A stretch of 64,000 nucleotides of DNA from an uncultured Gammaproteobacteria bacterium (GTDB taxonomy: Bacteria; Patescibacteriota; Microgenomatia; Levybacterales; UBA12049). The notes under the pieces were generated by a model, which worked only from the letters and a program-made list of their open reading frames with translations, did no database searches and was not told the DNA's origin. Location of the stretch: the NCBI GenBank assembly GCA_964512695.1, contig CAZEJU010000001.1:7803-71802 (forward strand). Direction: 5' to 3'. Both the position numbers and the translations under genes were made by a program. Of the stretch, positions 25,108 through 41,204 are shown one piece after another (the stretch's first letter is position 1; each line of letters starts with the position of its first letter).

Positions 25108-25113
25108 ATTTAT

Positions 25114-26868
25114 ATGGCTAAAGAAGGTGAAATAAAAGGCACATATCAGTTTAGTATAGATGGCCCTCAGCTGACCAGTGACGATATACAGAGGAAGTTC
25201 CCTGGTGTCAAAAATAATGGTCATCTCGGAAAGACTGGTGTAGTACTACATGATACAGCAATTCCTATCGCAGCTATCCGACATCCTCGACTTATACCTA
25301 CGCGGTTAGATGGAATTATACCTGTGTTTGGTGGCCCCCAAACACACAGTAAAATAGAGCATATCCGTATCCGACCAGCTGGTGGCTCAGAAGCGAAAAG
25401 AATAGCAAAAGCAGTCCGTGGAACAACCCCAACACTCGGACCAGAAGCAGAAGCATTTGTACATAACAGAAGAACAGGCAGACTTGTACCTACATTTAAA
25501 GGAAAACAAATTGAAACACAAAAAGCACTGAGAGAAGATGCACTTGGACATACGGGATCGCTTGAAGAACACATCGTAGCATCTGCTAAATTTACAGTTT
25601 TTAGAGCTAATCAAGAGCGCAGACGAGGACGTATCGCAGTTGAAACAAGTGTTCCTATAACCTATGGTGAAGGTAAAGATGCTCGAGATAGTGAAGGTCT
25701 CGCAGGTAGTGAAAATCCATATATTGTGGCTATGACACATCTGTTCCCTGAAAATATGCTCCCTACAGAGAAGCTTGATCCACAAGTTGCAAGCGTTTTA
25801 AATCAATACGCTCTTCGCCATGGGTTTGCGACTATTTCTGATATGACCAGCGCTCTCGGTCTTAACCGCACCTGGCACATGGCTGCAAGCCATCTGAGTC
25901 TTGGTCTACCGCAGGAACAACAACCAGATGGGAAATATATTACTTCTACTGAGATCGCGATAGGAGTTATGAATGTATTTATGAGTGACCTTAATATTTC
26001 GCATATGTTTACTCATGGAACACCTATGCTAGGCGGACAATTAGTAGATGTTCCAGCACGAAATCGTCAATCAGAACATGTGGCCTCAAATCAACCGTTA
26101 CGGGATGTACGACTTGGTGCATTTAAGCATATGTTAGGCACTGCTTATCCTGGCCCGCTTATCGCGAATGAAGAAGATCTCTATGATCGCTGGAGAAAGA
26201 TTGTTATTCCAGGGAAAGCCGCGACTGTAGATCGAGCATCGGCAATTAGTATAGCACCAAATGGAGAAATCTATGCCTCAATGCATGCACGGGCTCGTCT
26301 TCGTGTGGGAGGTGATCCCACAAAACAAACTGTACGAGTCGAATCAGTAGGAGATAGCGCTACACCTTCACGCTACGACTTAATAGCGCGTGACGCGTAT
26401 CTAGTAATGTTATGGAACGGTGCTATGGAGGCAATGGCAAAAGGAAAAACCCCACAAGATTTCTGGGGGGGAAATTATCCAGCAATAACTGACTGGAAAA
26501 AGCAGCAGGAAGCGACATTAGGATTTTCTGTTAATGGACCAGCGAATAGGGAAGCACATGTGCTGATTGAACAAAACCTGGGGTTTTTACGTGATATGAA
26601 AGCTCTCCAACCTACATTAGGTACGTACATCGATTATGTAACAGCACGTATTCGTAATTTTAGTAGACCGACAAAAGCACACACACTCGATGAGTATACA
26701 ACAGATCCATCAGGTAGCATAAGCGAGGTAATTCGACGCATGAAAGAAACCGGATATAAAGATGATGAAATCGTGCGAGCTATTGACACACATCAAACTG
26801 CAGTATCACGAAGAGTTGTTCAAGTTCATGGAGATTTTAAAGCGCTTCTACAAGATGTACAAAAGTAA
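25114..26868 (+). CDS. GCS2 / glutamine-synthetase-fold carboxylate-amine ligase-like protein, paralogue A (584 aa)
   Basis: Shares family landmarks with the other paralogues: GRIAVETSV (G-x-E-x-E-type strand), AASHLSLGLPQ, MHARARLRVGGDPTKQTVRVESVGDSA (R-x-R...E...D, compare HWxxRxx...xExRxxD of GCS2/YbdK). Confidence 0.55.
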   Translation: MAKEGEIKGTYQFSIDGPQLTSDDIQRKFPGVKNNGHLGKTGVVLHDTAIPIAAIRHPRLIPTRLDGIIPVFGGPQTHSKIEHIRIRPAGGSEAKRIAKAVRGTTPTLGPEAEAFVHNRRTGRLVPTFKGKQIETQKALREDALGHTGSLEEHIVASAKFTVFRANQERRRGRIAVETSVPITYGEGKDARDSEGLAGSENPYIVAMTHLFPENMLPTEKLDPQVASVLNQYALRHGFATISDMTSALGLNRTWHMAASHLSLGLPQEQQPDGKYITSTEIAIGVMNVFMSDLNISHMFTHGTPMLGGQLVDVPARNRQSEHVASNQPLRDVRLGAFKHMLGTAYPGPLIANEEDLYDRWRKIVIPGKAATVDRASAISIAPNGEIYASMHARARLRVGGDPTKQTVRVESVGDSATPSRYDLIARDAYLVMLWNGAMEAMAKGKTPQDFWGGNYPAITDWKKQQEATLGFSVNGPANREAHVLIEQNLGFLRDMKALQPTLGTYIDYVTARIRNFSRPTKAHTLDEYTTDPSGSISEVIRRMKETGYKDDEIVRAIDTHQTAVSRRVVQVHGDFKALLQDVQK

Positions 26869-27021
26869 CATTTGACAATATATTTGTAAATATAATTGAC
26901 AATATTACATATCTTTCAGTTAGTAATTATGAGTGCTGCCAATGCCTCTCAATACTTTTCGCACTCACTCACATCCTATAGTTGAATTTCTTCTCATATC
27001 TTTGTTACAATTTACCCCTAT

Positions 27022-28503
27022 ATGTCCCGAATACACGAATTACCAAGTATCCATACACTCTCTTCTACTGATGCTCAAAGATATTGGGATAAGTTACATC
27101 CAATAAAAGTTGTATCTCATGAGAGACCCCTGCAATACGGACATCCAGTTGAAATTCCTCCTAAACTCGCAGGAACTATTGGCAGATCAGCAAATCTCAT
27201 GGAAGAAATTGCGATAGATAGCATTATGCAACAAGGGGCCACTACATGGCTTGGAAATAATGCGGCTTCTTTCGCAGGTGATAGTCTTAACATACAAGAA
27301 ATCAACCACCAGCTCGAAGGTAGGCTTCTTCAAGGCTATCGATTACCTATTAGTTACGATGGAATGATAACAGTCTTTCGTGGAAGACCACATTATACAG
27401 TAGTGGAAGCACAATCTCTAGTTGCTCATGGCCCATGGATTCGGTCTATGCTTCAAGCAGCAGATAAAGATCCAGATGATCCATCATCATGGCAAGGGAA
27501 AGAAAATCCTACCCTCGTAGTTCAACAAATGAAAGACAATTTCGCGAAGGGTGAAGTTATAACAGTATTAGATACCACTCCACTTTCAGGTCCATTTATT
27601 CATGAACAAGTGGGTCTAGCGAAAGCATTAGGAACATCGGGAAGCGTGCCTATTTCTGCGCTTGATATCCAATTTAATCCTGAAATAGGTTATTTTCATT
27701 ACGGTTATGCAGTTGATACTAGAGGCTACCCTATACCAAATGGAAACGGCTTTTTAAGAACATCCGACCGAATACCAATCCGGCATGTGTTAAGCCGTAT
27801 GACGCAACCTGATCTGGATCATTTATACAATCTGGTCCGCGGTAACCCCCAACAAAGTGAACTTATACTCAAGTTCTTACGAGATGAAAAGATTAATTGG
27901 ATCTGGCATCCAGCATGGCAGTCCCTCATCGATAAATCGAGATTACCATATATCTGTAAAAAACTGGAAGAAAGACAAGAAAACGTAACACGCAATCAAT
28001 TTGTTCCGATTTTCGTAGCCGGTGAAACTCCACCCCTAGGAACGTATGTGCGTAAACCCGTAAGCAGCGTCCAAGGTGAAGGAGTAACAATTGTGCAAGT
28101 TAATGGCGTACCTCAACAAGTCGAAGAAGGCACAGTATACCAAAAGTATTTTTACCCGTATCCGTTTTCCATTCCCTTAGACGCAGAAATAGCACGGCAA
28201 TTTCCTGTAACACCCCATGCTCCCAGAAATGTCGCGTCTGGCTTCCAGGAACATTTCGGTTGGGGACAAACCACAACGCCTGCTAGTCTAGAATTATGTT
28301 ATATGGTGCCACCTTGGTGTAAAGGAGAACTTACGGGATATTTTATAGGGAGAGTAGCACCCAGGTATACAGGACCAGATTCAAGAAACATAACCCAAAC
28401 AAACCTCTCAAAAGCGCAAGCTGCGATGTACGAATATATCCGAGATCAGGATCATTGGAAAACACCCTTCGGCTTTTCCCCTGTAACTCTTCAAAAGACT
28501 TAA
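27022..28503 (+). CDS. ATP-grasp-like ligase (glutathionylspermidine-synthase-like flavour), 493 aa
   Basis: IWHPAWQSLIDKSRLPYI (compare the W..l.nKa.l..L motif of GspS-type pre-ATP-grasp proteins) and YVRKPVSSVQGEGVTIV (K-P-x-x-x-x-x-G-x-G-V ATP-grasp strand). Own TTGAAT-18-TACAAT promoter-like signal at 26982..27011. Confidence 0.45.
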   Translation: MSRIHELPSIHTLSSTDAQRYWDKLHPIKVVSHERPLQYGHPVEIPPKLAGTIGRSANLMEEIAIDSIMQQGATTWLGNNAASFAGDSLNIQEINHQLEGRLLQGYRLPISYDGMITVFRGRPHYTVVEAQSLVAHGPWIRSMLQAADKDPDDPSSWQGKENPTLVVQQMKDNFAKGEVITVLDTTPLSGPFIHEQVGLAKALGTSGSVPISALDIQFNPEIGYFHYGYAVDTRGYPIPNGNGFLRTSDRIPIRHVLSRMTQPDLDHLYNLVRGNPQQSELILKFLRDEKINWIWHPAWQSLIDKSRLPYICKKLEERQENVTRNQFVPIFVAGETPPLGTYVRKPVSSVQGEGVTIVQVNGVPQQVEEGTVYQKYFYPYPFSIPLDAEIARQFPVTPHAPRNVASGFQEHFGWGQTTTPASLELCYMVPPWCKGELTGYFIGRVAPRYTGPDSRNITQTNLSKAQAAMYEYIRDQDHWKTPFGFSPVTLQKT

Positions 28504-28528
28504 GCACACATACTCTTAAGTTTAAATA

Positions 28529-28675
28529 TTGACAATTTATAATTGATCTGGTAAGATTATAAGACAAATATGCAACATACGTTTAATTCTATTATTGTCG
28601 TCCTTCTCGTTACCCATTAATTGGGCGGAGGACTCGTGTTAAAAAACGTACCCGCTCAAAGAAGCGGGTTTTTTT
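28529..28675 (+). promoter_or_regulatory. Promoter plus Ile/Val/Leu-codon leader-peptide attenuator
   Basis: TTGACA(28529)-17-TAAGAT. Leader ORF 28570..28620 = MQHTFNSIIVVLLVTH (7 consecutive I/V/L codons). UUGGGCGG (28621) pairs with CCGCUCAA (28652) as antiterminator, versus terminator ACCCGCU-caaaga-AGCGGGU + U7 (28650..28675). Confidence 0.75.
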
Positions 28676-28696
28676 ATGTTTTAAAAGGAGAAATAT

Positions 28697-30556
28697 ATGA
28701 GTTCACATAAAGAATATGCAGGGCAAGCTGCTCTCAAATCCTTAGCTGAAAGATATATTAGAAGGTATGGCTTAAAAGCTGATTTTAATCCCGAAGAGAC
28801 AGGTGGAGTAATTTTCGCTCAAGACGGTACACCACTAAGGCAAGTCCGTGCTCCTTTCTGGAGAGCAGAAAAAGGTGCAAAGGGAACAGGCAGAAAAGAT
28901 ATGCCTAGAGTTTACACTGCTACAAATCCTGACCCGGATAAACCTAACTCAGGATTAGAATTAGAATTCCAAGCTTTCCATGCCATGACAGGAGAAATGG
29001 AACCAGTCATGGATGCAGACCACCCAGTACATCAGGGGTTATTGGAACACAATCGAAAAGCAAAAAATGGACACACTGAAAATAATGGAAATGGACTTGG
29101 AAACGGAAATGGGGTTAATGGATATGTTTTTGTAGAAGACGGCGCTGACTGGGACCATGACTTCCCAACTGGACCTAAAGAAGTAGGATTTAGCCCAGAG
29201 CTAACACGTCATACTTTGGAGGAAAACTTTCCTCCGAATGTAGATTCCGGAACACGAAACAGAGAGACATTATATGGTATTAGCACAGTTGTACAATTAG
29301 CAGAAGCAAATAACACACTTATCTCTCCGTTCTCGACTATACCGCATCGAGATATTACACAAATTGATACGAATCAACATCCATATGTCCAACGCATAGC
29401 GTTCGAACACATGGGTCCCGAAAAAGTTAAACACTTTACAGGTACTTCACTGCAAATTCACGTAGAAATCAAGGATTTAGAGTCAGCTTTACACGCTGCA
29501 AACCGTTGGCAGCTAGTTACACCTATTATGTATGCGGGAACACTTTCAGCACCTTTTATCGCAGGAGAAATAACACCCGATTTACAAGAACGGTATGGTC
29601 AAGTTCCCGACGTGGTTGGCGATCCACTAAAAGAAAGCACATTTGATACTATGACACAAGGACCCCATGAATCATATAGATATTATGGTAGATTAATAGG
29701 ATCACCTTCTGGAGGTGCAATGAGACAGCCTCTACCTGAAACATCTGAAGAATTTTGGTCTGCGGCTAATAATCTTCTAAAATCAGGAGAAAGTCCTTCC
29801 GTGGGTAGAGTAGCAGGACACCATGCAGATTTTCGTATTCGCCCTGACTTGGGACCGTATGGCACAATCGAGTTAGCAGTATTAGATACTGCCGGTGCGC
29901 GCATTCCAAATATCGTAGCCATTCAAGAATTCTCCAGAGCTTTGGGTTGGAAGTTACAGAGACAAGCAGGTAATTGGGAACAAATTATGGAAGATCCTCG
30001 TTTTAAATCGATATTCGGGCAAGCACCTTCTAAGGAAACATTCGAGACTGTTCACTGGAATACTATAGAGGTAGCAAAACATGGAAATAAGGCAATGATT
30101 ACTGGTATGGACGGAGAACAGCATTCTATAGCAGAGTTATGGAGTAAGTTAGTGGAATATGTACAAGAACCTATTGAAGAAACCGGTTATACTGGTTTAC
30201 CGGAAGGTATTATCGAGGTATTAGATAAAGCTTATCAAGACCCATCAGAACTATTTGATGTTTATAAAGACGAAAAAGGAGTTACTTCTGTCAAAGGATT
30301 CTATGAAACCGGAGTCGGAACTATGAGCCAGTGGGCCAGACAACGTGCAGAAGAGTTGAAAGCAAGAGGCTTAGCAGAAAAAGAAGCCATTATCGATACT
30401 ACACTTAATGTAGGCAAAAGCTTTCATGAACATGTAAAGTCAATGACACCCAAAGATCTTAATACTTTATATGTAAGCGCTAACAAGGATGTGGATAAAT
30501 CACCCCAATACAGCGCTAATGGTCAGAATCCATCATACCAAACCACTGCGTCCTAA
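28697..30556 (+). CDS. GCS2-fold carboxylate-amine ligase-like protein, paralogue B (619 aa)
   Basis: SGLELEFQAF, GTSLQIHVEIKD, GHHADFRIRPDLGPYGTIELAVLDTA (close to the GCS2 HWDVRP...T(I/V)E(V/L)RV.D signature). AAAGGAG SD 6 nt upstream. Confidence 0.65.
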   Translation: MSSHKEYAGQAALKSLAERYIRRYGLKADFNPEETGGVIFAQDGTPLRQVRAPFWRAEKGAKGTGRKDMPRVYTATNPDPDKPNSGLELEFQAFHAMTGEMEPVMDADHPVHQGLLEHNRKAKNGHTENNGNGLGNGNGVNGYVFVEDGADWDHDFPTGPKEVGFSPELTRHTLEENFPPNVDSGTRNRETLYGISTVVQLAEANNTLISPFSTIPHRDITQIDTNQHPYVQRIAFEHMGPEKVKHFTGTSLQIHVEIKDLESALHAANRWQLVTPIMYAGTLSAPFIAGEITPDLQERYGQVPDVVGDPLKESTFDTMTQGPHESYRYYGRLIGSPSGGAMRQPLPETSEEFWSAANNLLKSGESPSVGRVAGHHADFRIRPDLGPYGTIELAVLDTAGARIPNIVAIQEFSRALGWKLQRQAGNWEQIMEDPRFKSIFGQAPSKETFETVHWNTIEVAKHGNKAMITGMDGEQHSIAELWSKLVEYVQEPIEETGYTGLPEGIIEVLDKAYQDPSELFDVYKDEKGVTSVKGFYETGVGTMSQWARQRAEELKARGLAEKEAIIDTTLNVGKSFHEHVKSMTPKDLNTLYVSANKDVDKSPQYSANGQNPSYQTTAS

Positions 30557-30590
30557 CAAGTATCAACTATTGTTGTGATACAATAACAAC

Positions 30591-31676
30591 ATGATTCAAC
30601 AAGAAAGGCTTCTAAAAACATTCTTCGATCTTGTTTCAATCGATAGTCCTACAGGTGAAGAAGAACGCATTCGTAACGAACTCTCAAATCGTTTGAAAAA
30701 ACTTGGCGCTGAAACAGTGGAAAAAGATACCTATGGTAACCTCATAGCGAAATTCCATGGTGAAGGTGAACCGCTCATGATTAACTGCCATATGGACACT
30801 GTAGAGCCCGGTAGAGGCATAGTACCAATTATGAAAGGTGATAGAGTAGAAACCGACGGGAAGACAATTCTAGCGGGTGATGCAAAGGCAGGTTTAGCGA
30901 TTATCCTCGAAGCCTTAACTTCACTAAAAGAAGAAAATAAAAAACATGTACCTATCGAAATCGTCTTTACTGTAGAGGAGGAAACTGGACTTTATGGAGC
31001 TGTTAACCTCGACTATTCAAAAGTCTCCGCAAAAAAAGGATTTGTTTTTGATGGTTCAAAAGATCCTTGTACCTTAACCACATCAGCACCGGGATATTAT
31101 AGAGTCGATGTTACAATCATAGGAAGAGCGGCTCATGCGGGAGCCGAACCTGAAAAAGGTATTTCAGCTATTAAAATCGCTTCTGATATTATTACGAAGC
31201 TCGAGGTAGGCAGAATTGATGAAGAAACTACGGCAAACGTCGGTATTATAGAAGGCGGAAGCGCCCGGAATGCAGTACCAGAAAAAGCACATTTTAAGGC
31301 AGAAATTCGAAGTAGAAAGCTAGAAAAGCTTGAAAAACATGCAGGTCATTTCCAAGAAGTTTTTGAGGAAGCGATGAAGAAACATCCTGAAGCGAAAATA
31401 GAGATAGACATGCATTTAGAATTTAATCCATATATTTTCGATGAAAACCATCATGTTATTCAGCTTGCGAGTAAAGCGTTAAGCGAACTAGGACAAACAC
31501 CGAAACTTGCACCTTCGAATGGAGGATCCGATGTCAATATTTTTATTTCACACGATATAGAAACAGTGGCTGTAGGAATTGGCGATTATAATGCTCATAC
31601 AACCCGCGAATACGTCGTCATATCTGAAATAGTGTTAGGAGCTAGACTCTGCGAAAAACTCCTTGAGGCGAAGTAA
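30591..31676 (+). CDS. M20-family metallopeptidase (peptidase T / tripeptidase-like)
   Basis: SPTGEE, CHMDTVEPG, LAGDAKAGLA, EEETGLYGA, RAAHAGAEPEKGISA: M20 metal-ligand motifs. 34 nt after paralogue B, so likely the same operon. Confidence 0.75.
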   Translation: MIQQERLLKTFFDLVSIDSPTGEEERIRNELSNRLKKLGAETVEKDTYGNLIAKFHGEGEPLMINCHMDTVEPGRGIVPIMKGDRVETDGKTILAGDAKAGLAIILEALTSLKEENKKHVPIEIVFTVEEETGLYGAVNLDYSKVSAKKGFVFDGSKDPCTLTTSAPGYYRVDVTIIGRAAHAGAEPEKGISAIKIASDIITKLEVGRIDEETTANVGIIEGGSARNAVPEKAHFKAEIRSRKLEKLEKHAGHFQEVFEEAMKKHPEAKIEIDMHLEFNPYIFDENHHVIQLASKALSELGQTPKLAPSNGGSDVNIFISHDIETVAVGIGDYNAHTTREYVVISEIVLGARLCEKLLEAK

Positions 31677-31759
31677 ATTGGTATATTGCTAAACTGCTAA
31701 TTGTTACGTGAGAGTAACCATACAACAATACCCATATCAATAAATTTTCGCTACAAAAA

Positions 31760-32107
31760 TTGACACGTCATTAACCTCATGGTAGAATTACTATAACATA
31801 CGAATAACAGCGTTGATCCAGTATGGATGGGACTGGGGATTCTCCTTCATTAAAGTTACGCAAGGAGAGCGCTGGGTCTAATCAACCCCGGAGGCGAAAC
31901 CGTAAAAAGATCAGCAACATGTGTCATAGCTGCAGATAAGCACTGATTAAAAGCTGATTCTCGCTGATATAGAGCATGTCATGAATGAGAAGTCCTCCCA
32001 CGCCAAAGCTCCGGAGGATAAAACAAGGTGGCACCGTCCTTAAATAAACGTGGGACCCTTGTAAATAACTACAAAGTAATTTTGTGGTTGTTTACAAGGG
32101 TTTTTTT
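31760..32107 (+). promoter_or_regulatory. Promoter plus T-box-like leader (antiterminator bulge UGGC; specifier not resolved)
   Basis: TTGACA(31760)-17-TAGAAT. ACAAGG-UGGCACC-GUCC..GGAC-CCUUGU (32023..32062) is a T-box-type antiterminator with a 7-nt bulge. Its 3' strand is shared with a 14-bp terminator CCCUUGUAAAUAAC/GUUGUUUACAAGGG + U7 (32056..32107). Confidence 0.6.
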
Positions 32108-32108
32108 A

Positions 32109-33269
32109 ATGGTAAAAACTATGAAAGAAGGAGTTATTATACAAGTTGATCCGAGAATACCAGAGCCATATATAACATATATCCGGCAACGAAATGGGAA
32201 TGTCGGCAGAGATATAGCAGATCACCTTGGCCTACCCTATGTAGGAGACAGTCAGGGAGTACAACGTGCAGCTGATTATTATCCTGTACTTGCCAGAACT
32301 GTCACCAGAGAACATGCAAGAGTATTAGGTGCAGAAAATACAAGAGATTTCTATGGTCTTGCAGTTGAAGATTTAAATGTTGTGGGTAAATCTATACTCC
32401 ATCCTTCTATAAGCAGAAGACATCCTTTATTTCATAGAGAACAATTCGCACGAAAAGTCTTAGGTCAAACCCTTCCTGGTATAACCGGTTTCTCTAAAGA
32501 AGATTTATTAGCAGGGTATGAAAATGGTTACGCTGGATCACTGGATCATGCTTTAGATTACGAGCAGTATGGATTACGTGTTAAACTTCCAAATGAATCC
32601 GACGGCGTAGGACAATTTACTATACAAAGCAAGGATGATCTGGTTACTCTTCTAGAAGCTATTGAGGATAAAGATATCCACGAACAAGGACTGGTTCTGG
32701 AAGCTGATGTACAGAAACCTGAGACTATATCAGTCGGATTCGCGAGAATCGGTGATGAACAATTAAGTTTCATAGCCCAACAAAAAGATGCACGTGTGTT
32801 AGTAGATCATAAGGGCAAAACAATAGAGCAGAATAGATATGGTGGGGCATACGTCGTTGTGGCAAAAGGCCCTTTACAGTTACTATGCCAAGCCACGGAA
32901 GCAACTTCGCGTGAGAGATCTGCTGTAGAAAAAACACTGGCGTTTCATGAAGCCTATCAACGCATCTATGATCCTTTAGCTTCGAGATTAAGTTTCGATG
33001 TCATTTTCGGAGAAGGGAAAAACGGTCTCCCACTTGCAGGAATAAGTGACATTACTGGTAGGCTAGGTGGAACGTGTCCAGCACTCATGCAAGCTGCTGA
33101 AGAGTTCAGGAAAAACCCTTCTATTCAAATGGTAGGAACAGAAGTATCTCTTAATTATACTCCCCATGTACGATTTCCCTATGAAGATGAAGCTAAGGTG
33201 TATGTAGACCACCCAACACTCAGACTTACAGCAAGAGTAAACTCAAAACACAGAAGACTCGCAGCATAG
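32109..33269 (+). CDS. ATP-grasp-like protein (386 aa from the ATG at 32109)
   Basis: GLRVKLPNESDGVGQFTIQSKDDLVTLLE.. and ..GLVLEADVQKPETISVGFARIG.. fit ATP-grasp central-domain strands. I rejected the ORF-track start (32028) because it overlaps the leader terminator. Confidence 0.4.
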   Translation: MVKTMKEGVIIQVDPRIPEPYITYIRQRNGNVGRDIADHLGLPYVGDSQGVQRAADYYPVLARTVTREHARVLGAENTRDFYGLAVEDLNVVGKSILHPSISRRHPLFHREQFARKVLGQTLPGITGFSKEDLLAGYENGYAGSLDHALDYEQYGLRVKLPNESDGVGQFTIQSKDDLVTLLEAIEDKDIHEQGLVLEADVQKPETISVGFARIGDEQLSFIAQQKDARVLVDHKGKTIEQNRYGGAYVVVAKGPLQLLCQATEATSRERSAVEKTLAFHEAYQRIYDPLASRLSFDVIFGEGKNGLPLAGISDITGRLGGTCPALMQAAEEFRKNPSIQMVGTEVSLNYTPHVRFPYEDEAKVYVDHPTLRLTARVNSKHRRLAA

Positions 33270-33278
33270 ACATGAATC

Positions 33279-33422
33279 TTGACATTACACATGGGCTATC
33301 CTATAATCATTTATATGATACGACAAGCAGTAAATTTCTTTTTCTTTTTTACCCCACTCGCGGGGAGGTAATTTCGTGATCACACGAAATACTCTATACC
33401 CCGCATAAGGCGGGGTTTTTTT
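33279..33422 (+). promoter_or_regulatory. Consensus promoter plus Phe-codon leader-peptide attenuator
   Basis: TTGACA(33279)-17-TATAAT(33302). Leader ORF 33315..33371 = MIRQAVNFFFFFTPLAGR, with its ATG only 7 nt after the -10 (leaderless). CCCC/GGGG (33352/33362) 1:2 hairpin. GCGGGG (33360) can pair with CCCCGC (33399), versus terminator CCCCGC-auaag-GCGGGG + U7 (33399..33422). Confidence 0.8.
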
Positions 33423-33435
33423 ATGGAGGAATTCT

Positions 33436-35136
33436 ATGGCAATGACTGAACAAGACATACTAAAAGGTACAATGAACGGCCGAGTTGATTCAGGTTTAAA
33501 GGCAACTGATAACACAGCAGTACCTTTAGGTGAACAATCTCATGGCGGCATAGTCCGAAATACCGATGGACTATGGTGGCTACCTGCCTCACCACATCGC
33601 GGAAGGGGTTTCGAATGGCAAGACTCAAAGGATCCTAGATATAACGCAACACATTTAAGTGAAGTTGGCTACCACCCTGAACCTCTAGAACCACAGAGAA
33701 CCGTAGAAGTATTAGCTGAACATTTACAAGAAAAAGTTGAAGGAAGAATTCCGGAAACAGAAACCCATGGAGTTGAAGTTGAAGGGACTACCTATGATCG
33801 AGAAGGCAATCTCTTAGCAATTCCTGTCGATCAGAAAACAAATCCCGAATTATTAGCTTCTACACATGAAGAAGCCACAAAACTGGAAAACGGACAGTAC
33901 CCGAGAAAACCATTTGAAATAGCTCGAGCAGTAGCCAGTGCAACCCAGCGGGGTATCGCAATCGCTGAAAATCATAGCGGAATACTTGTCCTCACAGAAG
34001 TACCAGAAGGTGGAACATTTCATGATGCTGAAAACAGTACATTTCCATATATAGTACGTCAACAAGGAAGAATTCGAAGACACGCATTAGCACACCTTGA
34101 TGAGATACCTGAAGAAACATGGGCTCTCTATCGACGTTACGGCGTAGATATTCGAGAACTACTGGAATCTAATAGACCGCTCAATTGGCCTACTCATGGA
34201 TTGCATCATCATGCCGGTGCGCCACAAATAGAAGGATTAGTCGACCCGAGAGCCGCACTGGTTATGGGAAAAATGCGTCAAACACTTTTTGCAAAATTAC
34301 TGCAATACCCAGCATTTAATAGCAGTAGATTATATGAAAAAGAAACTGATCTCCGCGGAGTCCGATCTGTCGCAAAACACGCGCTTGCTACAACAGTTAA
34401 TAATGATTTACCTGATAGTGCTGAAGAGCTAATGTGGGATGTGCAACGGGCAATGAGAGAGGGAGAAATCGCTACGCCTTCACGATATCCTTATAAAGGC
34501 CAACACGATGTCGTTCGATTTAGGATGGATGGAAAACATAAAACTGTCGAGTCTATTAAAGATCCTATGACACCTGACCTATTAACAGCGCTTCATCTCG
34601 TGTTCGGCAATCAACTCCTGGATACCATCGGCCAGCAAGCTCTCGTACAAGTAGGTGGAGATGAAAGCAAAGTTATGGGTTATTTACAATCTATACATCC
34701 TGAGCTTTTTGCCACATTGCCTTCATTAGGTCCTGAGTCATCACATAGTGCAGATATGCAGTTTAATAAAGCAGGGTATCTAGGAACATTCCGCGGGAAA
34801 ACTTATGCTGAGCTTATAAGAGATGCACGTGCTGTCGTGGAAGGGGTAGGCAAACATTATACAGCACTTGAGACACAAGCTAAAATTGTAAATCACGTAC
34901 TAGGATACCAAACAGATATTCCTCATCCACAGACTGATCTAGCAACATTTATGGGAATAAAAAATGGAGTTTACCAACCAAATAGTATGAGAGCAGGAAT
35001 TCTAACGGATTATAAAACGGGTATTCCTACAAATGAACTGTTAGTTGTCCAGGCTGAAGCAACGAAATTACAAGCTCAAGCTTTAGCACAAGTGAGAGAT
35101 GATAAAGATCTTCTCGAAGTGTATGGATTACAGTAA
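33436..35136 (+). CDS. GCS2-fold carboxylate-amine ligase-like protein, paralogue C (566 aa)
   Basis: HGVEVEGTTY, THGLHHHAGAP, GQHDVVRFRMDGKHKTVESIKDPM. GGAGG SD 6 nt upstream. Confidence 0.55.
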   Translation: MAMTEQDILKGTMNGRVDSGLKATDNTAVPLGEQSHGGIVRNTDGLWWLPASPHRGRGFEWQDSKDPRYNATHLSEVGYHPEPLEPQRTVEVLAEHLQEKVEGRIPETETHGVEVEGTTYDREGNLLAIPVDQKTNPELLASTHEEATKLENGQYPRKPFEIARAVASATQRGIAIAENHSGILVLTEVPEGGTFHDAENSTFPYIVRQQGRIRRHALAHLDEIPEETWALYRRYGVDIRELLESNRPLNWPTHGLHHHAGAPQIEGLVDPRAALVMGKMRQTLFAKLLQYPAFNSSRLYEKETDLRGVRSVAKHALATTVNNDLPDSAEELMWDVQRAMREGEIATPSRYPYKGQHDVVRFRMDGKHKTVESIKDPMTPDLLTALHLVFGNQLLDTIGQQALVQVGGDESKVMGYLQSIHPELFATLPSLGPESSHSADMQFNKAGYLGTFRGKTYAELIRDARAVVEGVGKHYTALETQAKIVNHVLGYQTDIPHPQTDLATFMGIKNGVYQPNSMRAGILTDYKTGIPTNELLVVQAEATKLQAQALAQVRDDKDLLEVYGLQ

Positions 35137-35139
35137 GCT

Positions 35140-35982
35140 TTATTCTCCTGACCAGGACATGGCATTCATAGCTATTTGAGAATCCATATCCAAATTCTTC
35201 AAAGTAAGTGGCAGAAAAGATACATTACTTAATAAGACAGCTCGTTCTAAGGGGGTATTTTCCAGAATAGGAGCATACAGTCGTCCTTCAATACCATCTC
35301 GGACTTCCTTCACATTAACAGAATCAGTAACACCAACCACAGGTACTGTAATTGAGTGTTTTTCTATCTGTAAATATTTCGAGGGCCAGATAAGATCTGG
35401 ATTTTCACTATCTGAAACGAAAAACTGTCTACCATTCGCAGGAACTACTAAACCTGATACAGCAGGTCTGGTATCAAAACTCTGGCCTTCATCACCCCAT
35501 AACATCTCACGAATGTCCTGGTGTACGTAACCTCTTCCACCTGAAAGGAGCGCAGCGCCATTCGCGTTGGAATAGAGCAATCCGAATGCTATACCTATCT
35601 CATCTAATTCTATGGCAGCAGGGGATGCAGCACGCTCTGAAAGTGATAAAGAAGCAGTACGCATTTGTTGCATCTGACTTATAGCACCTCTATGCTTCTG
35701 CATAACCATTTCTCTAACAGATTCACGTTCTTTATTAAAAGCTGACCATGTAGCAGGGAGAACGTCTATATATGCAGTTATACCCAATTCTTCGCGAATT
35801 GTTTTCTCTAATGCAGCCACCCTATCCATAGCGATCAATCGCTCACGGTCAGCGTGGATACTAGCGCCAATATCCTTACCTGCCAGAGCTTTTAAATAAG
35901 CAGCATGATACTCAGCATATAACGTGCGTAGTTGTTGGGTGTAGATTTGCAGCAATCTCGAATTTTCTCTACGTTCTATCAT
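35140..35982 (-). CDS. Hypothetical protein (280 aa) embedded in the ligase cluster
   Basis: Long ORF convergent with paralogue C (stops 3 nt apart), with cluster-like GC-rich codon usage. No recognised family. Confidence 0.45.
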   Translation of the reverse strand: MIERRENSRLLQIYTQQLRTLYAEYHAAYLKALAGKDIGASIHADRERLIAMDRVAALEKTIREELGITAYIDVLPATWSAFNKERESVREMVMQKHRGAISQMQQMRTASLSLSERAASPAAIELDEIGIAFGLLYSNANGAALLSGGRGYVHQDIREMLWGDEGQSFDTRPAVSGLVVPANGRQFFVSDSENPDLIWPSKYLQIEKHSITVPVVGVTDSVNVKEVRDGIEGRLYAPILENTPLERAVLLSNVSFLPLTLKNLDMDSQIAMNAMSWSGE

Positions 35983-36100
35983 GGGTAATATTATATATTA
36001 TAGGATCTAATTCACACAAGCATACGGGTCGGTATTTTCCAGCACAGTTATTTATTAAGCAGTTTGTAATATTAGGAAGACTATTGTAGTTAGTAAAGTG

Positions 36101-36174
36101 TGGGGCCAAGTGGACTTGAACCACTGACCTTTTCAATGTCAATGAAACGCTCTAGCCAACTGAGCTATGGCCCC
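36101..36174 (-). tRNA. tRNA-Val (anticodon GAC)
   Basis: GGGGCCA/UGGCCCC acceptor, A73, D-arm GCUCAGUUGGCUAGAGC, anticodon loop UUGACAU, T-loop UUCAAGU. Confidence 0.85.
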
Positions 36175-36306
36175 ATTTTTTACAATCACCATTCTAACAA
36201 AATAGTACTTGTAAAACAATCTTTCTCGTTTTCTAGCATTGTTAATATTTTTACTGTATTTATTGACATAGCTTTATGACCTTCTGTTATACTATCTGCA
36301 TACTTA

Positions 36307-36900
36307 TTGGGGCAACAAATGACAAGATCTGAAGCATATACAATGCTTACAAAATATCTCCATAATAAAAACCTTATTAAGCATTGTCTTGCTGCTGAAG
36401 CGACAATGAAAGCTTTATATAAACGCCTGACTCCACAGCATGAACAAAACCCAGCAGATGAGGAAAAATGGGGGATTGTGGGACTCATGCATGATGCGGA
36501 TTATGAAATTGCACAACAGACAAACCAGCTTGATAAACATGGATTGTTACTCTTTGAAAAAGAACAGGGAACAATACCAGATGATATCGCGCATGCTATT
36601 AAATCTCACAATTTTTTAAACACGAGAGTAATGCCAGAGAATGCCATGGATTGGGCTATAGAAACATGTGATCAACTAACAGGGCTTATCGTCGCAGCCG
36701 CGCTCATCCACCCTGATAGAAAATTATCCTCACTAGATACACAATTCGTATTAAACCGATTTCACGAAAAATCATTTGCGAAGGGAGCAAAACGTGAGGC
36801 GATTATTCTCGCTGAAAAAAAGCTAGGGTTACAGCTAGAAGAATTCATAACAGTTACATTAAAGGCAATGCAAGGAATTAGTACAGAATTGGGATTGTAA
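36307..36900 (+). CDS. HD-domain phosphohydrolase
   Basis: ..HCLAAEATMKAL.. and GLMHDADYE (H..HD motif). About 197 aa, HDIG-like. Confidence 0.65.
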   Translation: MGQQMTRSEAYTMLTKYLHNKNLIKHCLAAEATMKALYKRLTPQHEQNPADEEKWGIVGLMHDADYEIAQQTNQLDKHGLLLFEKEQGTIPDDIAHAIKSHNFLNTRVMPENAMDWAIETCDQLTGLIVAAALIHPDRKLSSLDTQFVLNRFHEKSFAKGAKREAIILAEKKLGLQLEEFITVTLKAMQGISTELGL

Positions 36901-36930
36901 TTTATACTTTTATTCTCCATAATATTTTTA

Positions 36931-37152
36931 ATGTCTTCCGAAAAATATCATCATGTACATAAAGGAAAGATTGAGATTTTCATCAATAATTTTACAGGCG
37001 GAATTGCCTGGGGATTAGGAGCAAGTGTAGGTGTATCAATCCTATTTACGATTCTCGGTTTTATAGCAACTCAAGCAAATCTCGTTCCCTATATAGGAAC
37101 ATTTGTTTCACAAATTATCGACTTCGTGTTAAAACATAACAAACATTTTTAA
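36931..37152 (+). CDS. Small membrane protein
   Basis: 73-aa ORF with two hydrophobic helices (GGIAWGLGASVGVSILFTILGFIA..). Confidence 0.4.
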   Translation: MSSEKYHHVHKGKIEIFINNFTGGIAWGLGASVGVSILFTILGFIATQANLVPYIGTFVSQIIDFVLKHNKHF

Positions 37153-37163
37153 TAACTGCTGTA

Positions 37164-37296
37164 TTGACGAACTGTATGACTCATGGTATATTGCTCAAAT
37201 ATATGAAATCCACTTTTTTAGTTTGTTGTGTTACAACTCTGCTTTAAGGGGTTGTAGTTATCGTGGAATATGCACCCCGCCAAGCGGGGTTTTTTT
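37164..37296 (+). promoter_or_regulatory. Promoter plus leader-peptide attenuator with tandem Cys codons (specificity tentative)
   Basis: TTGACG(37164)-17-TATATT. Leader ORF 37203..37247 = MKSTFLVCCVTTLL. GGGG (37248) immediately after the stop can pair with CCCC (37275), versus terminator CCCCGC-caa-GCGGGG + U7 (37275..37296), directly abutting the gene's ATG. Confidence 0.55.
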
Positions 37297-38289
37297 ATGA
37301 GAAACTTATTAGAATTAGGAATTTTCGAAACATACGGAAATGGTGGAGGAGCAATTACCAAAGATAGAGTATCTCCTCCTATTTATCCAGTAGATGCTAA
37401 TTTAGGTGAATGGAGGATACTAGCAACTGATCATGAAAGAGAATTCCCGGGCGAGCATCTCGAACGTGCTTTTGAAGTGATAAAGCAATGGCAGGAAGTA
37501 TTTCCTCGGGAAGATACCTGGATTAATCGTGCGTATGGTATTCCGTCACCGATTATTAAACTCGATGCAACAATTACTAATAATGAATTACAGGTGTATG
37601 AAGTAGAAGATAGACCAGCAGGAATGGGTTATAGCGAATTAATAAATCCTGACTTACGAACAAATTTTGCTGATATTGTATCTACTTGGCCAGATTTCCG
37701 AGTCGTCGTTTCTCCTCAAAGATCTGGAAATGACGATCATTTATGGGCAAAGCCAGCAGAAGCAGATTGGCATGGTCTAGTTCTCGTCCGGGCAGAACCG
37801 TCTGAAGAAGAATTCCATGCATTACAGCGAAGATCCATAAGTACTCTGCTTACAGAAGGAGACAAATCGTATGGTGAAAAAATGGGTTTATGGAAAAGAG
37901 TTCATACAGCAGATGAGATAGATTTTTCACAAGGTTTTGTCGTCAAGCCCACCCAAGGAAGCAAAGGGAATGGTGTGTATGTATCTTTACCGAAACAATA
38001 CATGAAAGAACATGGGATCGACCCAGGTAGAAATGGCGTAGCTACTGCAGGGAAAATACGAGGTGTAATCGATACTGCAGCAGCAAATGGAGGAGTCTTC
38101 GTACAACAATATCATCCTCCTATGGAAACAGGTATCCCGACCCATCCCTGGGCAGTAAACCGGTTATTCTTCGGGTATGATATGCAAAATGGAGAATGGA
38201 GATATATAGGGGGAACATGGAATGCTCGAAATAATTTGAAAATTCATGGAGCTAGTGATACATTAACTGGCCCGTTAAAAACGGTATAA
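37297..38289 (+). CDS. ATP-grasp-like ligase (330 aa)
   Basis: GFVVKPTQGSKGNGVYVSL (ATP-grasp K-P-x-x-G-S-x-G-x-G-V strand), ..VFVQQYHPP... Start set at the ATG abutting the terminator U-tract. Confidence 0.5.
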   Translation: MRNLLELGIFETYGNGGGAITKDRVSPPIYPVDANLGEWRILATDHEREFPGEHLERAFEVIKQWQEVFPREDTWINRAYGIPSPIIKLDATITNNELQVYEVEDRPAGMGYSELINPDLRTNFADIVSTWPDFRVVVSPQRSGNDDHLWAKPAEADWHGLVLVRAEPSEEEFHALQRRSISTLLTEGDKSYGEKMGLWKRVHTADEIDFSQGFVVKPTQGSKGNGVYVSLPKQYMKEHGIDPGRNGVATAGKIRGVIDTAAANGGVFVQQYHPPMETGIPTHPWAVNRLFFGYDMQNGEWRYIGGTWNARNNLKIHGASDTLTGPLKTV

Positions 38290-38346
38290 AAAAAATTGAT
38301 TAGATTTTACTTCACTTACCCTCGGTTCGTAAACGTAAATGCTCTC

Positions 38347-38492
38347 TTGACGTCCAAATAGATATAACTCTATAATACAAAGTGTTCTATATGAATATCA
38401 TGAATAACAATGGAGCAGTAAAGAAGAACCTCTCGTAAGAGGGGTCTTTCTGTTGTCTGCACAATAGTACCCCTTACAGAAGGGGTTTTTTT
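38347..38492 (+). promoter_or_regulatory. Promoter plus Asn-codon leader-peptide attenuator
   Basis: TTGACG(38347)-18-TATAAT(38371). Leader ORF 38391..38438 = MNIMNNNGAVKKNLS (5 Asn in 15 aa). CCUCU/AGAGG hairpin over the stop codon. GAGGGG (38439) can pair with CCCCUU (38470), versus terminator CCCCUU-acag-AAGGGG + U7 (38470..38492). Confidence 0.65.
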
Positions 38493-38615
38493 ATGGATTT
38501 TTTGCTGAACCAATAGTTCTACTTAGAAATCCAAATCCTCCAAAAAGCGCTCTTCGAGCCGCAGTTCAAATGAACTAAAGCGGAAAGGAAGCTTAGGAGG
38601 ACAAAGCTTTACATT

Positions 38616-39899
38616 ATGAAAGAAGGACTAAAAGTATTATCACACTCATCTATAGAGGAATATCTATTCGATACTGATGTCGAAGACCGATATTATATTC
38701 CGTGGCGTGCAGCCGCAGAAGCAGCAGCAAGAATCGAACTAGGACAACAAGTTTTGACAATCCTTCCAAAACGTGAAGCTTTTAACGAATACCTCACCCT
38801 TTTACAAATGAAATTACTGGGAGGAAGAAGTATTCCAACGCTGTTTACACCTGATGAAGATTATCTTATGGATACTGATATTAAAAAATATCTTATGGAT
38901 ACTCTTCGTGGCAGATTTAACAGAAGTACCACTATTCATCCCTATCAAGCAACACCTGAATTTTATGATTGGGCGGGGGAGTTAGAACAGAAAGGCGTTA
39001 AAATTTACGCAGATAGAAAACGCAAAGACTTACGTGACTGGTGGGGACATAAAGGAGCATATCATCGATGGATAGATGATCTCGATACTCCCACTCAATT
39101 TGAAGGATTACATTTACCAATACCTCGAGGATACGTGGCTCAAAACCATGGAGAATTACTTGTAGCGAAAAAACTTCTACCAACTGACACTGTTGTGGCA
39201 AAACCAATTTTCGGAGCTGGTGGATTTCAAATAGAGTTCTTAGACGACGATAATATCGATACATATGAATGGCCTACCGACCCCACAACGGAAAAACCCA
39301 TGCCAGTTGCTGTACAAGAAAGACTAAGAATTGGTCGAGATGAATTCGGCGAACGTGTTTTTTCCTACCAGTTTGAGGGCCCACAACCAATGGGACGATT
39401 AACACGACAAATTATGGATCAGGAAACTGGGAAAGTCTGGAGTGGGAATAGAGTACCAGCAGATGTTACACCTGAGTTTGAACGAAGAGCAAAGGATGTA
39501 GTTCATACTTTAGTCATGAAAACAAAACCAAAAGGAGACGGGGGAGTCGATATAGCAGATGTAGATGGAGAACCAGTAATCATCGAAGTAAACGGAGGAA
39601 GGCCAACTGGCGCACATATGCCGAAACGATTTCAACAAGCCTTCGCGCCTGAAGCTCCACATTTCGTATTTCAGAAAGTAGAACCAAACGGATATTCACC
39701 ATTCGATATTTGGGATAGACTCGAAGGAGGAAACTTGCCTCGCACGAATGAAACTCTAGTATTTCAGCGTGAAAGACAACGCGGGGTTTTTCCATTAGTT
39801 TGGTTACCGAACTCTTGGGGAATGCTTGCAAGCTTCGGAGGATCATTCGAAGAAGCAAATAATCAGTTACTCGCAGCTCGTGATAGAATAGGCGTATGA
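38616..39899 (+). CDS. ATP-grasp-like ligase (427 aa)
   Basis: VVAKPIFGAGGFQIEFL, ..GGVDIADVDGEPVIIEVNGGRPTG.. (ATP-grasp C-terminal E-x-N region). AGGAGG SD. Confidence 0.5.
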   Translation: MKEGLKVLSHSSIEEYLFDTDVEDRYYIPWRAAAEAAARIELGQQVLTILPKREAFNEYLTLLQMKLLGGRSIPTLFTPDEDYLMDTDIKKYLMDTLRGRFNRSTTIHPYQATPEFYDWAGELEQKGVKIYADRKRKDLRDWWGHKGAYHRWIDDLDTPTQFEGLHLPIPRGYVAQNHGELLVAKKLLPTDTVVAKPIFGAGGFQIEFLDDDNIDTYEWPTDPTTEKPMPVAVQERLRIGRDEFGERVFSYQFEGPQPMGRLTRQIMDQETGKVWSGNRVPADVTPEFERRAKDVVHTLVMKTKPKGDGGVDIADVDGEPVIIEVNGGRPTGAHMPKRFQQAFAPEAPHFVFQKVEPNGYSPFDIWDRLEGGNLPRTNETLVFQRERQRGVFPLVWLPNSWGMLASFGGSFEEANNQLLAARDRIGV

Positions 39900-40966
39900 C
39901 TGAGAAAAGGGTAGTACAAATATTTTTCGATTTAGTAAAAATTGACAGCCCTTCTGGACATGAAGAGAACGTTTTAGAGTATATAGAAGCATATTGCAAA
40001 AAACTCTCACTAAATACACAGAGGGATTCTTATGGAAACCTCATCGTTAAAAAAGAAGGAGTAGGTGAACCACTACTTCTCTGTTCACATGCCGATACAG
40101 TAGAACCAGGGAAAAATATTCAACCACGAATAGAGAACGGAATTATAAAAAGCGATGGTACGACGATACTTGGTGCTGATAATAAATCGTCTATTGCAGC
40201 GATTCTCGAGGCTGTGAAACAATTAGTTGAAGAAAAAAAACACCATAGGCCTCTAGAGCTTGTGTTTACAAAATCTGAAGAAGTTGCTAGCTGGGGAGCA
40301 GTATATCTGGACTACAAACAACTTCAAGCAAAAGAAGGATATACGATAGATAACGCAAATCCTGTAGGAACAATTGTCTACGCGTCTCCTTTTTACTATC
40401 GTTTCGATATTACAGTATTCGGTAAAGATGCCCATGCTTCAAGACCGCATGAAGGAATTCATGCTTTAAAAATCGCTGCAAGCGCCATTCATAAAATAAA
40501 ACTTGGAAAAATTGATACAAATACACTTGCCAATATCGGCATGATCCAATCAGGCCATGTACGCAACACAATTCCAGGTTCAGTAGTGCTTATGGGAGAA
40601 GTACGAAGCTATTCCGATGAGAAAGCTCAAAGGTACTTAAACAAAATTATTGATACATTTAGAAAAACTGCAGAAAAAACGGGAGGATCTATAACGTACG
40701 AAACGCTGAAAGAAAATGCTGGGTATATATATAAAACAAATGATCCCTTTGTAAAAAAAACGATGCAGATTATGAAAAAGATTGGAGTAGAAACGAACTT
40801 AATTAAAACTCTGGGCTGTGCCGATGCAAATGTGATCCAAGAGCATGGAATTAAAATGCTCGACCTGGGCGACGGCTCACGCAGAGCGCATACACTAAAG
40901 GAGTCAATACCGGTAGCACAGTTACAAAGAGTCGTTGAGCTAGTATTAGCTCTTGCTGGAGCATAA
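39896..40966 (+). CDS. M20-family metallopeptidase (second copy, peptidase T-like)
   Basis: SPSGHE, SHADTVEPG, LGADNKSSIA, KDAHASRPHEGIHA. ATGA start/stop overlap with the upstream ATP-grasp gene. Paralogue of 30591..31676. Confidence 0.75.
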   Translation: MTEKRVVQIFFDLVKIDSPSGHEENVLEYIEAYCKKLSLNTQRDSYGNLIVKKEGVGEPLLLCSHADTVEPGKNIQPRIENGIIKSDGTTILGADNKSSIAAILEAVKQLVEEKKHHRPLELVFTKSEEVASWGAVYLDYKQLQAKEGYTIDNANPVGTIVYASPFYYRFDITVFGKDAHASRPHEGIHALKIAASAIHKIKLGKIDTNTLANIGMIQSGHVRNTIPGSVVLMGEVRSYSDEKAQRYLNKIIDTFRKTAEKTGGSITYETLKENAGYIYKTNDPFVKKTMQIMKKIGVETNLIKTLGCADANVIQEHGIKMLDLGDGSRRAHTLKESIPVAQLQRVVELVLALAGA

Positions 40967-41085
40967 AACCATACACTCTTCACCCTCCCTTTTCGAATTT
41001 ACGTGAACACTTCCCGAGGTTTGAATAGAAACCAACCTCCCAGGTTGGCAACTAGTAATTTGAGGACTTGCTTAAGGGAGCGTTT

Positions 41086-41204
41086 ATGCGATATACTTTC
41101 TTCAACATGAGTAAATCAGTTTTCGGAACTACCACTACAACAACCCTTTCCTAAGGGAGGTTGGCGTGGTATTATTTAACAACCTCCTTAATAGGAGGTT
41201 TTTT
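41086..41204 (+). promoter_or_regulatory. Thr-codon leader-peptide attenuator
   Basis: AGGGAG SD, then leader ORF 41086..41154 = MRYTFFNMSKSVFGTTTTTTLS (6 consecutive Thr codons). CCCUU/AAGGG 1:2 hairpin. AAGGGAGGUUG (41153) pairs with CAACCUCCUU (41180), versus terminator CCUCCU-uaau-AGGAGG + U6 (41183..41204). The terminator is nearly identical to that of the Met leader. Confidence 0.8.

Follow-up and report, generated by a model that had tools for sequence, protein, structure and literature searches.

The window, by which we mean the whole 64-kb stretch of DNA analysed here, carries on its plus strand a promoter, a short open reading frame rich in phenylalanine codons and an intrinsic terminator, followed directly by the gene of a 566-residue protein. 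The features of the locus are the following:

33279..33284, plus strand: -35 hexamer TTGACA (sequence reading and promoter scan)
33302..33307, plus strand: -10 hexamer TATAAT, 17-nt spacer from the -35 hexamer (sequence reading and promoter scan)
33314..33315, plus strand: predicted transcription start, A33315 (the A of the leader AUG) or T33314 just before it (geometry)
33315..33371, plus strand: leader ORF MIRQAVNFFFFFTPLAGR and its stop codon (direct reading)
33336..33350, plus strand: putative sensing tract, five tandem Phe codons TTC TTT TTC TTT TTT (direct reading)
33352..33355, plus strand: region 1, CCCC, pairs with the GGGG of region 2
33360..33365, plus strand: region 2, GCGGGG, 5' arm of the antiterminator
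33371..33390, plus strand: spacer hairpin ATTTCGTG-atca-CACGAAAT
33398..33422, plus strand: intrinsic terminator ACCCCGC-ATAAG-GCGGGGT plus T7 (hairpin 33398-33416, T7 33416-22; scan)
33399..33404, plus strand: region 3, CCCCGC (direct reading)
33410..33415, plus strand: region 4, GCGGGG (direct reading)
33425..33429, plus strand: Shine-Dalgarno sequence GGAGG of the 566-aa gene, outside the switch (direct reading)
33436..35136, plus strand: regulated gene, encoding 566 aa with the modelled fold of YbdK/GCS2-type carboxylate-amine ligases (AlphaFold and Foldseek)

The promoter described in the sequence-only reading, TTGACA-17-TATAAT with an ATG 7 nt further on, was read directly and recovered as the same promoter (12/12 consensus positions) by the scan. 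Only 7 nt, catttat, separate the TATAAT from the leader ATG at 33315. On both strands of the 64-kb window this is the only sigma-70 promoter that matches the consensus at 12 of 12 positions, compared with 0.1 in shuffled sequences. The preferred context of a transcription start is a pyrimidine at -1 and an A at +1. In C. glutamicum, the -10 box is found 7 +/- 1 nt 5' of mapped starts (PMC3896937), a spacing that makes the A of the AUG the expected first base of the leader transcript. The position of the transcription start at the leader ATG is accordingly a prediction from geometry. The leader ORF comprises 18 codons and the stop codon UAA at 33369-71 (ATG ATA CGA CAA GCA GTA AAT TTC TTT TTC TTT TTT ACC CCA CTC GCG GGG AGG TAA), and reading it at 33336-33350 confirmed the five consecutive Phe codons that had been claimed for it. 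A tRNA-Phe(GAA) gene is located in the window at 15005-15078.

The four RNA regions, their 1:2, 2:3 and 3:4 pairings and the U7 tract, likewise proposed beforehand, are all readable in the sequence, and the terminator was also detected by the scan. Region 1 starts 1 nt after the Phe run and forms a 1:2 stem of 4 pairs only; region 2 is situated inside the leader ORF, 3 nt before the stop codon, and the 2:3 antiterminator encloses the spacer hairpin. The terminator stem consists of 7 pairs, 6 of them G-C, with a hairpin energy of -13.6 kcal/mol. Folding of the transcript yielded -31.5 kcal/mol, as against -19.9 +/- 3.1 kcal/mol for shuffled sequences (z = -3.8; 0 of 200 shuffles as good). When region 4 was omitted, the minimum-energy fold was the 2:3 antiterminator around the spacer hairpin. 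For the full transcript, the lowest energy belonged to a nested 1:4 plus 2:3 arrangement and not to 1:2 plus 3:4, so that termination without translation depends on folding kinetics. The Phe leader possesses a run of cognate codons, mutually exclusive folds with an arm that can be masked, and a terminator before the gene, the features by which attenuators are recognized.

Locus scans with a 7-sequence alignment of the 566-aa family covered 7 genome and 12 metagenome loci; the genome loci came from Roizmanbacteria, Woesebacteria, another Patescibacteria bin and one bin labelled Gammaproteobacteria. In all 17 loci with upstream DNA (L001-L006, L008-L013 and L015-L019), an ATG-started short ORF with a Phe run, homologous to the leader ORF of the window, lies directly 5' of the 566-family gene; the Phe run is thus borne out in relatives. 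Because L003 and L012 are the same, as are L008 and L009, and L005, L006 and L016 are close, these loci amount to about a dozen independent lineages. Examples of the leader peptides are MTNLSLSFGFFFFNLVRRGD, MITASTSFGFFFFFTPQMAG, MSKKLISFFFFAFNPTKAG, MLHQISFFFFFSPSRRGYMM, MKKIKLTNFFFFFFNPNLGGVVF and MSKRNINQKFFFFFFNHAHAG. The orthologous leaders contain 3-6 Phe per 7 codons, and the breaks in the run are changes of whole codons (to Gly, Ala, Tyr, Arg or Val), which means that the reading frame is kept. The run is followed by (A/G)CCC(C/G), with the ACCCC/AGCCC form conserved, and in 17 of 17 leaders by a GC-rich region 2 within the ORF near the stop codon and then by a C-rich/G-rich terminator with a T-run. 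A spacer hairpin of differing sequence is predicted at the same place in most orthologues.

The predicted antiterminators (-10 to -21 kcal/mol) and terminators (-7 to -19.5 kcal/mol) are of comparable stability in every locus. Regions 2, 3 and 4 vary jointly between a GCGGGG/CCCCGC/GCGGGG type and a GGCGGG/CCCGCC/GGCGGG type; since the paired arms hardly change, there is little compensatory covariation to be seen. A duplex test with swapped arms, in which the arms of L008, L010 and L018 were wrongly parsed, revealed no difference between cognate (-10.5 kcal/mol) and non-cognate (-10.0 kcal/mol) combinations of these near-invariant arms. A covariance model (R1) built from 14 orthologous leaders, with the window left out, had its top match in the window at 33311-33424 (54.1 bits, E 1.6e-9); under the same model, scores of 12.7-27.5 bits were obtained for the remaining leader cassettes. 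Searching the whole window with Rfam 15 at gathering thresholds gave no family match to the Phe leader, and Phe_leader (RF01859) reached 26.3 bits (E 0.03 in a 501-nt search), below its gathering score of 55. The Phe leader is a well-defined RNA family that is missing from Rfam 15.

With a probability of about 0.8, we take the element to be a transcription attenuator in which the ribosome acts as the sensor of charged tRNA-Phe. The parts of this case that are directly observed are the sequence elements, the mutually exclusive folds and the conservation together with the gene family; ribosome stalling and the direction of regulation are proposed from the anatomy of the leader and from what is known of the trp, his and phe attenuators. 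In the proposed mechanism, RNA polymerase would begin on the A of the leader AUG or on the nucleotide before it, and with such a start the ribosome would initiate on a leaderless mRNA and follow the polymerase closely. When Phe-tRNA is plentiful, the ribosome would pass the five Phe codons, reach the UAA at 33369-71 and cover region 2, upon which the 3:4 hairpin and U7 would bring about termination before the 566-aa gene. When Phe-tRNA is scarce, the ribosome would stall in 33336-50 with the third to fifth Phe codon in its A site; its footprint would then lie over region 1 (33352-55) but not over region 2, which would pair with region 3 and enclose the spacer hairpin, so that the terminator could not form and the gene would be transcribed. 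If the leader were not translated, 1:2 and 3:4 would form and transcription would stop. Since the downstream Shine-Dalgarno sequence follows the U-tract and is unsequestered, control should be transcriptional.

The leader ORF is probably read from a leaderless mRNA that has no 5' UTR. Taking the best sigma-70-like promoter at each of 16 orthologous loci, we found a gap of 6-8 nt between the -10 box and the ATG in 12, each with a -35 box 16-18 nt farther upstream of the -10 box. The alternative is that the attenuator is the same and not leaderless, transcription starting by read-through from the upstream DUF3182 gene or a few nucleotides upstream, which would give a long or short 5' UTR. No terminator is present between the upstream gene (end at 33269) and the leader, so that some transcripts must read through. 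The -10 box lies 14-15 nt from the ATG in L008 and L010, which would give a 7-8-nt UTR, L011 and L018 lack a convincing promoter before the leader ORF, and in the Ile/Val/Leu leaders of this system the corresponding gap is 11-13 nt. We nevertheless regard a 5' UTR as unlikely, because 12 of the 16 loci retain a gap of 6-8 nt although the intervening segment diverges freely and shows no conservation among orthologues. This constancy suggests that leaderless translation is selected. In addition, several of these discriminators are pyrimidine-rich, often with a C or T just before the A, which favours a start at A; the start codon is ATG in all 16 leader ORFs examined; and a Shine-Dalgarno sequence before the leader ORF is absent from every locus examined, the window included, as 6-8 nt 5' of the leader ATG leave no room for one. 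The missing 5' UTR had been called unusual for an attenuator; it is less so than was supposed, as leaderless leader ORFs are already known in Actinobacteria (mycobacteria, Corynebacterium).

Two readings that dispense with attenuation were also weighed. The unit from promoter to terminator could be an independent small gene, encoding an sRNA or a hydrophobic FFFFF peptide, with the downstream gene uncontrolled. The cassette is indeed complete (promoter, ORF and terminator) and bears a weak Rfam likeness to terminator-bearing sRNAs, all far under threshold. In 17 of 17 loci, however, it immediately precedes a gene of this one family, irrespective of which gene lies upstream; apart from the Phe run and the C-terminus, which the RNA constrains, the peptide shows no conservation among the orthologues, and the alternative pairing overlaps the terminator, which together make an independent small gene very improbable. 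Least credible of all is a generic promoter and terminator cassette of the T4-type phage style, or a terminator of the upstream gene, whose T-run encodes Phe by chance: several cassettes of the window do end in ACCnnnn-loop-nnnnGGT, T5-7 and ATG, the covariance model matches the other cassettes weakly and the scattered tRNA genes suggested a phage, but there is no phage match, housekeeping genes are present in the window, each cassette has a different amino-acid run in frame with its ATG, the Phe run stays in frame with whole-codon substitutions only across orthologues that are ∼35-40% identical, and the type of leader goes with the gene family (Phe with 566, Ile/Val/Leu with 619).

The attenuator of the window resembles the enterobacterial pheA/pheST leaders (pheL, pheM; RF01859) in its short ORF with Phe codons, its 1:2, 2:3 and 3:4 pairings, its terminator before the gene and the proposed logic by which low Phe-tRNA would lead to read-through. 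It differs from them in that the leader, given the predicted start, has neither a 5' UTR nor a Shine-Dalgarno sequence, in that the target does not belong to Phe biosynthesis and is not the synthetase, and in that the lineage is probably CPR and not Proteobacteria. Of the resemblance to pheA/pheST leaders that the sequence-only reading had put forward, the functional likeness therefore stands and homology does not, the Rfam Phe_leader score being 26.3 bits against 55.

A second related system is the set of polycysteine leaderless short ORFs of mycobacteria, in which Cys attenuation works at the translational level (Canestrari et al., bioRxiv 10.1101/834739). Both systems combine a short ORF, leaderless in mycobacteria and probably so in the window, tandem codons of one amino acid and the ribosome as sensor, and in both several loci make up, or may make up, a ribosome-directed regulon ('ribulon'). 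In contrast to the mycobacterial ORFs, the leader of the window has a hairpin-U7 terminator 5' of an unmasked Shine-Dalgarno sequence, which points to transcription termination; the two systems also concern different amino acids and different phyla. The leader peptides of ilvBNC, trpE, leuA and aroF in C. glutamicum are transcription attenuators (PMC3890552), and for that of ilvBNC, translation from a leaderless mRNA has been discussed (PMC11857589). These leaders control classical biosynthetic operons in an amino-acid prototroph, whereas that of the window precedes an uncharacterised enzyme with a ligase fold, in a lineage that passages of the literature describe as unable to make amino acids.

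The regulated 566-aa protein belongs to a rare family, of which an exhaustive HMMER scan found 42 representatives among 1.84 billion sequences, at ∼30-40% identity. A word-index protein search with the 566-aa protein returned the query itself only. No match was obtained against Pfam, including GCS2 (PF04107), even at E 5, or against NCBIfam, including the YbdK models, and a profile search of the PDB sequences with the family gave chance matches only. An AlphaFold model computed from 26 family members had a pLDDT of 91.3 and a pTM of 0.92. The best Foldseek matches in the PDB were the YbdK structures 1tt4 and 1r8g (E 2e-9 to 1e-8; target TM 0.61-0.69), and the top 22 PDB matches were all YbdK or glutamate-cysteine ligases, with glutamine synthetases and PafA lower in the list. 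The protein thus has a YbdK/GCS2 fold according to the model. Compared with the YbdK/GCS2 ligases and γ-glutamylcysteine ligases, its closest structural matches, it is ∼200 residues longer and has an extra helical C-terminal part. Invariant within the family are E114, E116, E138, E145, H257, H259, R310, R350, R361 and E372, a set of Glu, His and Arg residues that we take to be the metal/ATP-site pattern of the YbdK/GCS2 fold. A ligase-fold enzyme induced by Phe starvation would have no obvious part in Phe supply.

BLASTP among the proteins of the surrounding gene island linked only a 584/594-aa pair and two M20 genes, leaving the 566-aa protein unlinked, so that profile comparison was needed to relate its family to the 594-aa gene (97% probability) and the 619-aa gene (92%) of the window. 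The same comparison detected no relationship to the annotated GCS2 gene at 56332. The designation of the target as a GCS2-fold paralogue therefore survives as regards the modelled fold (pLDDT 91, Foldseek E 2e-9) and a remote paralogy with two island genes, and finds no support as regards kinship with the GCS2 gene at 56332. In relatives, a 619- or 594-family gene usually precedes the 566-family gene, and a PepT-like M20 peptidase gene follows 35-65 nt 3' of it in at least 8 loci. The 566-family gene is co-transcribed with the PepT-like M20 peptidase in most relatives; in the window itself, a peptidase gene after the 566-aa gene is absent.

The Phe leader is one of several within a section of the window, from ∼24 to 44 kb, that has 41% G+C compared with 35-37% in its flanks. 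This island consists mostly of genes without a Pfam match, including those of proteins of 584, 493, 619, 566 and 594 aa, and also encodes two PepT-like M20 peptidases (TIGR01883), the DUF3182 protein and ATP-grasp-like proteins. Elsewhere the window contains genes for BipA, a SulP permease, an archaeal-type PEP carboxylase, a class A PBP (PBP1), TyrRS and RecG, the cluster thrS-infC-rpmI-rplT-pheS-pheT, and eight scattered tRNA genes. A phage origin, with T4-type promoter/stem-loop cassettes, was considered and rejected: no match was found in 50,697 phage records, and bipA, thrS-infC-rpmI-rplT-pheST, tyrS, recG and the PBP1 gene are present. A survey that combined a scan for terminators after short ORFs with direct reading identified at least six leader-peptide cassettes in the 20-kb island (Met, Ile/Val/Leu, Phe, Asn, Thr and possibly Cys), the runs differing in amino acid from cassette to cassette and lying in the reading frame of an ATG, and two leaders of RNA only:

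Start 23771: Met leader MHYIKVENMMAMMMTS, run MMAMMM, before a SAM_HAT-family gene (SAM_HAT_C)
Start 24790: RNA-only long structured leader with no amino-acid run, before the 584-aa gene
Start 28570: Ile/Val/Leu leader MQHTFNSIIVVLLVTH, before the 619-aa gene and an M20 peptidase gene
Start 31760: RNA-only T-box-like leader with an antiterminator bulge UGGCACC, before the DUF3182 gene
Start 33315: Phe leader MIRQAVNFFFFFTPLAGR, before the 566-aa gene
Start 37203: Cys or Val leader (uncertain) MKSTFLVCCVTTLL, before an ATP-grasp-like gene
Start 38391: Asn leader MNIMNNNGAVKKNLS, before an ATP-grasp gene and an M20 peptidase gene
Start 41107: Thr leader MSKSVFGTTTTTTLS, before the 594-aa gene

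Ile/Val/Leu leaders are also found 5' of 619-family genes in L001, L013, L017 and L018. Despite the T-box-like antiterminator, a T-box model searched against the leader at 31760-32110 gave no match at E up to 10. The pheS gene of the window (46182) has an upstream gap of 96 nt from which a leader is absent.

These leader peptides, at least six in number, and the two RNA-only leaders might together form a ribosome-read, multi-amino-acid CPR regulon over an undescribed set of GCS2-fold or ATP-grasp enzymes and PepT-like peptidases, in which each enzyme family would be specific to the amino acid of its leader and the whole would serve amino-acid salvage or synthesis; we put this forward tentatively. 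Enzymes of the SAM hydroxide adenosyltransferase family convert S-adenosylmethionine into adenosine and Met. The Met leader before the SAM_HAT-family gene, the peptidase partner and the strict pairing of Phe leaders with the 566 family hint at an enzyme that acts on Phe or a Phe conjugate and, together with the peptidase, makes more free Phe available, for instance through its salvage from peptides or conjugates. Our confidence in this assignment of function is low.

A full-text literature search found no paper tying leader peptides or attenuation to Patescibacteria/CPR. The mechanism is of a known kind; the value of the finding lies in the lineage, in an RNA family absent from Rfam and in a functional label attached to a family of uncharacterised enzymes. 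It appears that a leaderless version of classical ribosome-mediated attenuation is at work in a CPR lineage, and its leaders bear on the question of how CPR bacteria, being without amino-acid biosynthesis, acquire and apportion amino acids. They act as built-in labels, marking the 566-aa family with Phe and the 619-aa family with Ile/Val/Leu, and turn hypothetical proteins into testable candidates. If the regulon reading is true, these genes would represent amino-acid salvage, or synthesis, in organisms that are regarded as fully auxotrophic.

The leader cassettes, with a short ORF or a structured RNA before a gene, occupy an island at window positions ~24000-44000 with a G+C content of ~41%, compared with 35-37% in the flanks, and all of them lie on the + strand. 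The island ends at thrS; the Woesebacteria locus L003 shows the same proximity of thrS to the 566 family, that of the 566-aa protein behind the Phe leader. Two cassettes precede genes for remote paralogues of the 566-aa protein:

28529-31676, + strand: Ile/Val/Leu leader with its genes
28570, + strand: start of the Ile/Val/Leu leader ORF MQHTFNSIIVVLLVTH; terminator 28650-69
41086-41322, + strand: Thr leader region
41107, + strand: start of the Thr leader ORF MSKSVFGTTTTTTLS; terminator 41182-99

The genes behind the Ile/Val/Leu leader encode the remote GCS2-fold paralogue of 619 aa and an M20 peptidase resembling PepT. Similar leaders (IFVLLFI, IFVLLI, LVIVSILLF, LIIVSILLF) precede 619-family genes in 4 other loci; leaders of this type are located in L001 (~1960-2016), L013 (2438), L017 (~2100) and L018 (~2940). 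The gap between the -10 element and the ATG is 11-13 nt in the Ile/Val/Leu leaders of the 619 family, which implies a UTR of ~5 nt devoid of a Shine-Dalgarno sequence.

The switch of the Thr leader is formed by GGAGGTTG and CAACCTCC, and the 594-aa gene begins ~120 nt beyond the leader. A second Thr leader (MLNFQGTTTTTTTPFAG...) is present in L007 (5308-5424). Instead of Thr leaders, the 594-family orthologues of L002, L008, L010 and L015 carry leaders of the Ile/Val/Leu type, for example MKFRVLSVIILVLLITA. This difference within the family could reflect either leader swapping or unresolved paralogy.

Leader ORFs also precede an ATP-grasp gene and an ATP-grasp-like gene:

37164-37296, + strand: cassette with ORF MKSTFLVCCVTTLL (start 37203); terminator 37274-90
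38347-38615, + strand: Asn-rich leader region
38391, + strand: start of the Asn-rich leader ORF MNIMNNNGAVKKNLS; hairpins 38428-45 and 38469-86
39896: PepT-like M20 gene, after the ATP-grasp gene at 38616

The first cassette lies directly 5' of a gene whose 330-aa product faintly resembles ATP-grasp proteins; the regulatory amino acid of this cassette may be Cys, Val or Thr. Between the Asn-rich leader and the ATP-grasp gene lie a tiny ORF (MDFLLNQ) and then ~100 nt more.

Structured RNA takes the place of a leader ORF at two sites:

31760-32110, + strand: ~300-nt leader before the DUF3182 gene, the neighbor directly upstream of the Phe leader
24790-25113, + strand: ~290-nt structured leader before a 584-aa gene

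The antiterminator of the DUF3182 leader, in which helix ACAAGG/CCUUGU is followed by a 7-nt bulge (UGGCACC) and helix GUCC/GGAC, resembles a T-box antiterminator in architecture; its competitor is a terminator of 20 bp (32055-32101). A search of this leader with the T-box model of Rfam gave no match, even at E 10. For the leader of the 584-aa gene, base pairing is possible between CGUAAAGGAGG and the terminator (25083-25101), whose 5' arm and loop would both be involved. Because it contains no amino-acid run and belongs to no Rfam family, this leader may represent an undescribed riboswitch-like element.

In E. coli, pheS is the classical target of Phe attenuation. The window pheS, in contrast, is preceded by a gap of only 96 nt (46086-46181), T-rich and seemingly unstructured, in which neither a leader ORF nor a terminator was found. 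A second strong promoter has an ATG 7 nt after it, as at the Phe leader:

17624-17675, + strand: promoter TTGACA-17-TACAAT (11/12)

Its ORF has just 4 codons (MYLG*) and lies upstream of a 180-aa ORF at 17737.

A Met leader precedes a gene of the SAM hydroxide adenosyltransferase (SAM_HAT_C) family:

23729-24684, + strand: Met leader cassette with downstream gene; promoter TTGACA-17-TATTAT
23771, + strand: start of the Met leader ORF MHYIKVENMMAMMMTS
23887-24684, + strand: SAM_HAT_C family gene, 265 aa, 3' of the Met leader

The switch is GGAGGT/ACCTCC, with the terminator at 23852-69. Members of the SAM_HAT_C family convert S-adenosylmethionine to Met and adenosine. The cassette looks like a neat example of an enzyme that frees Met and would be induced by Met starvation.
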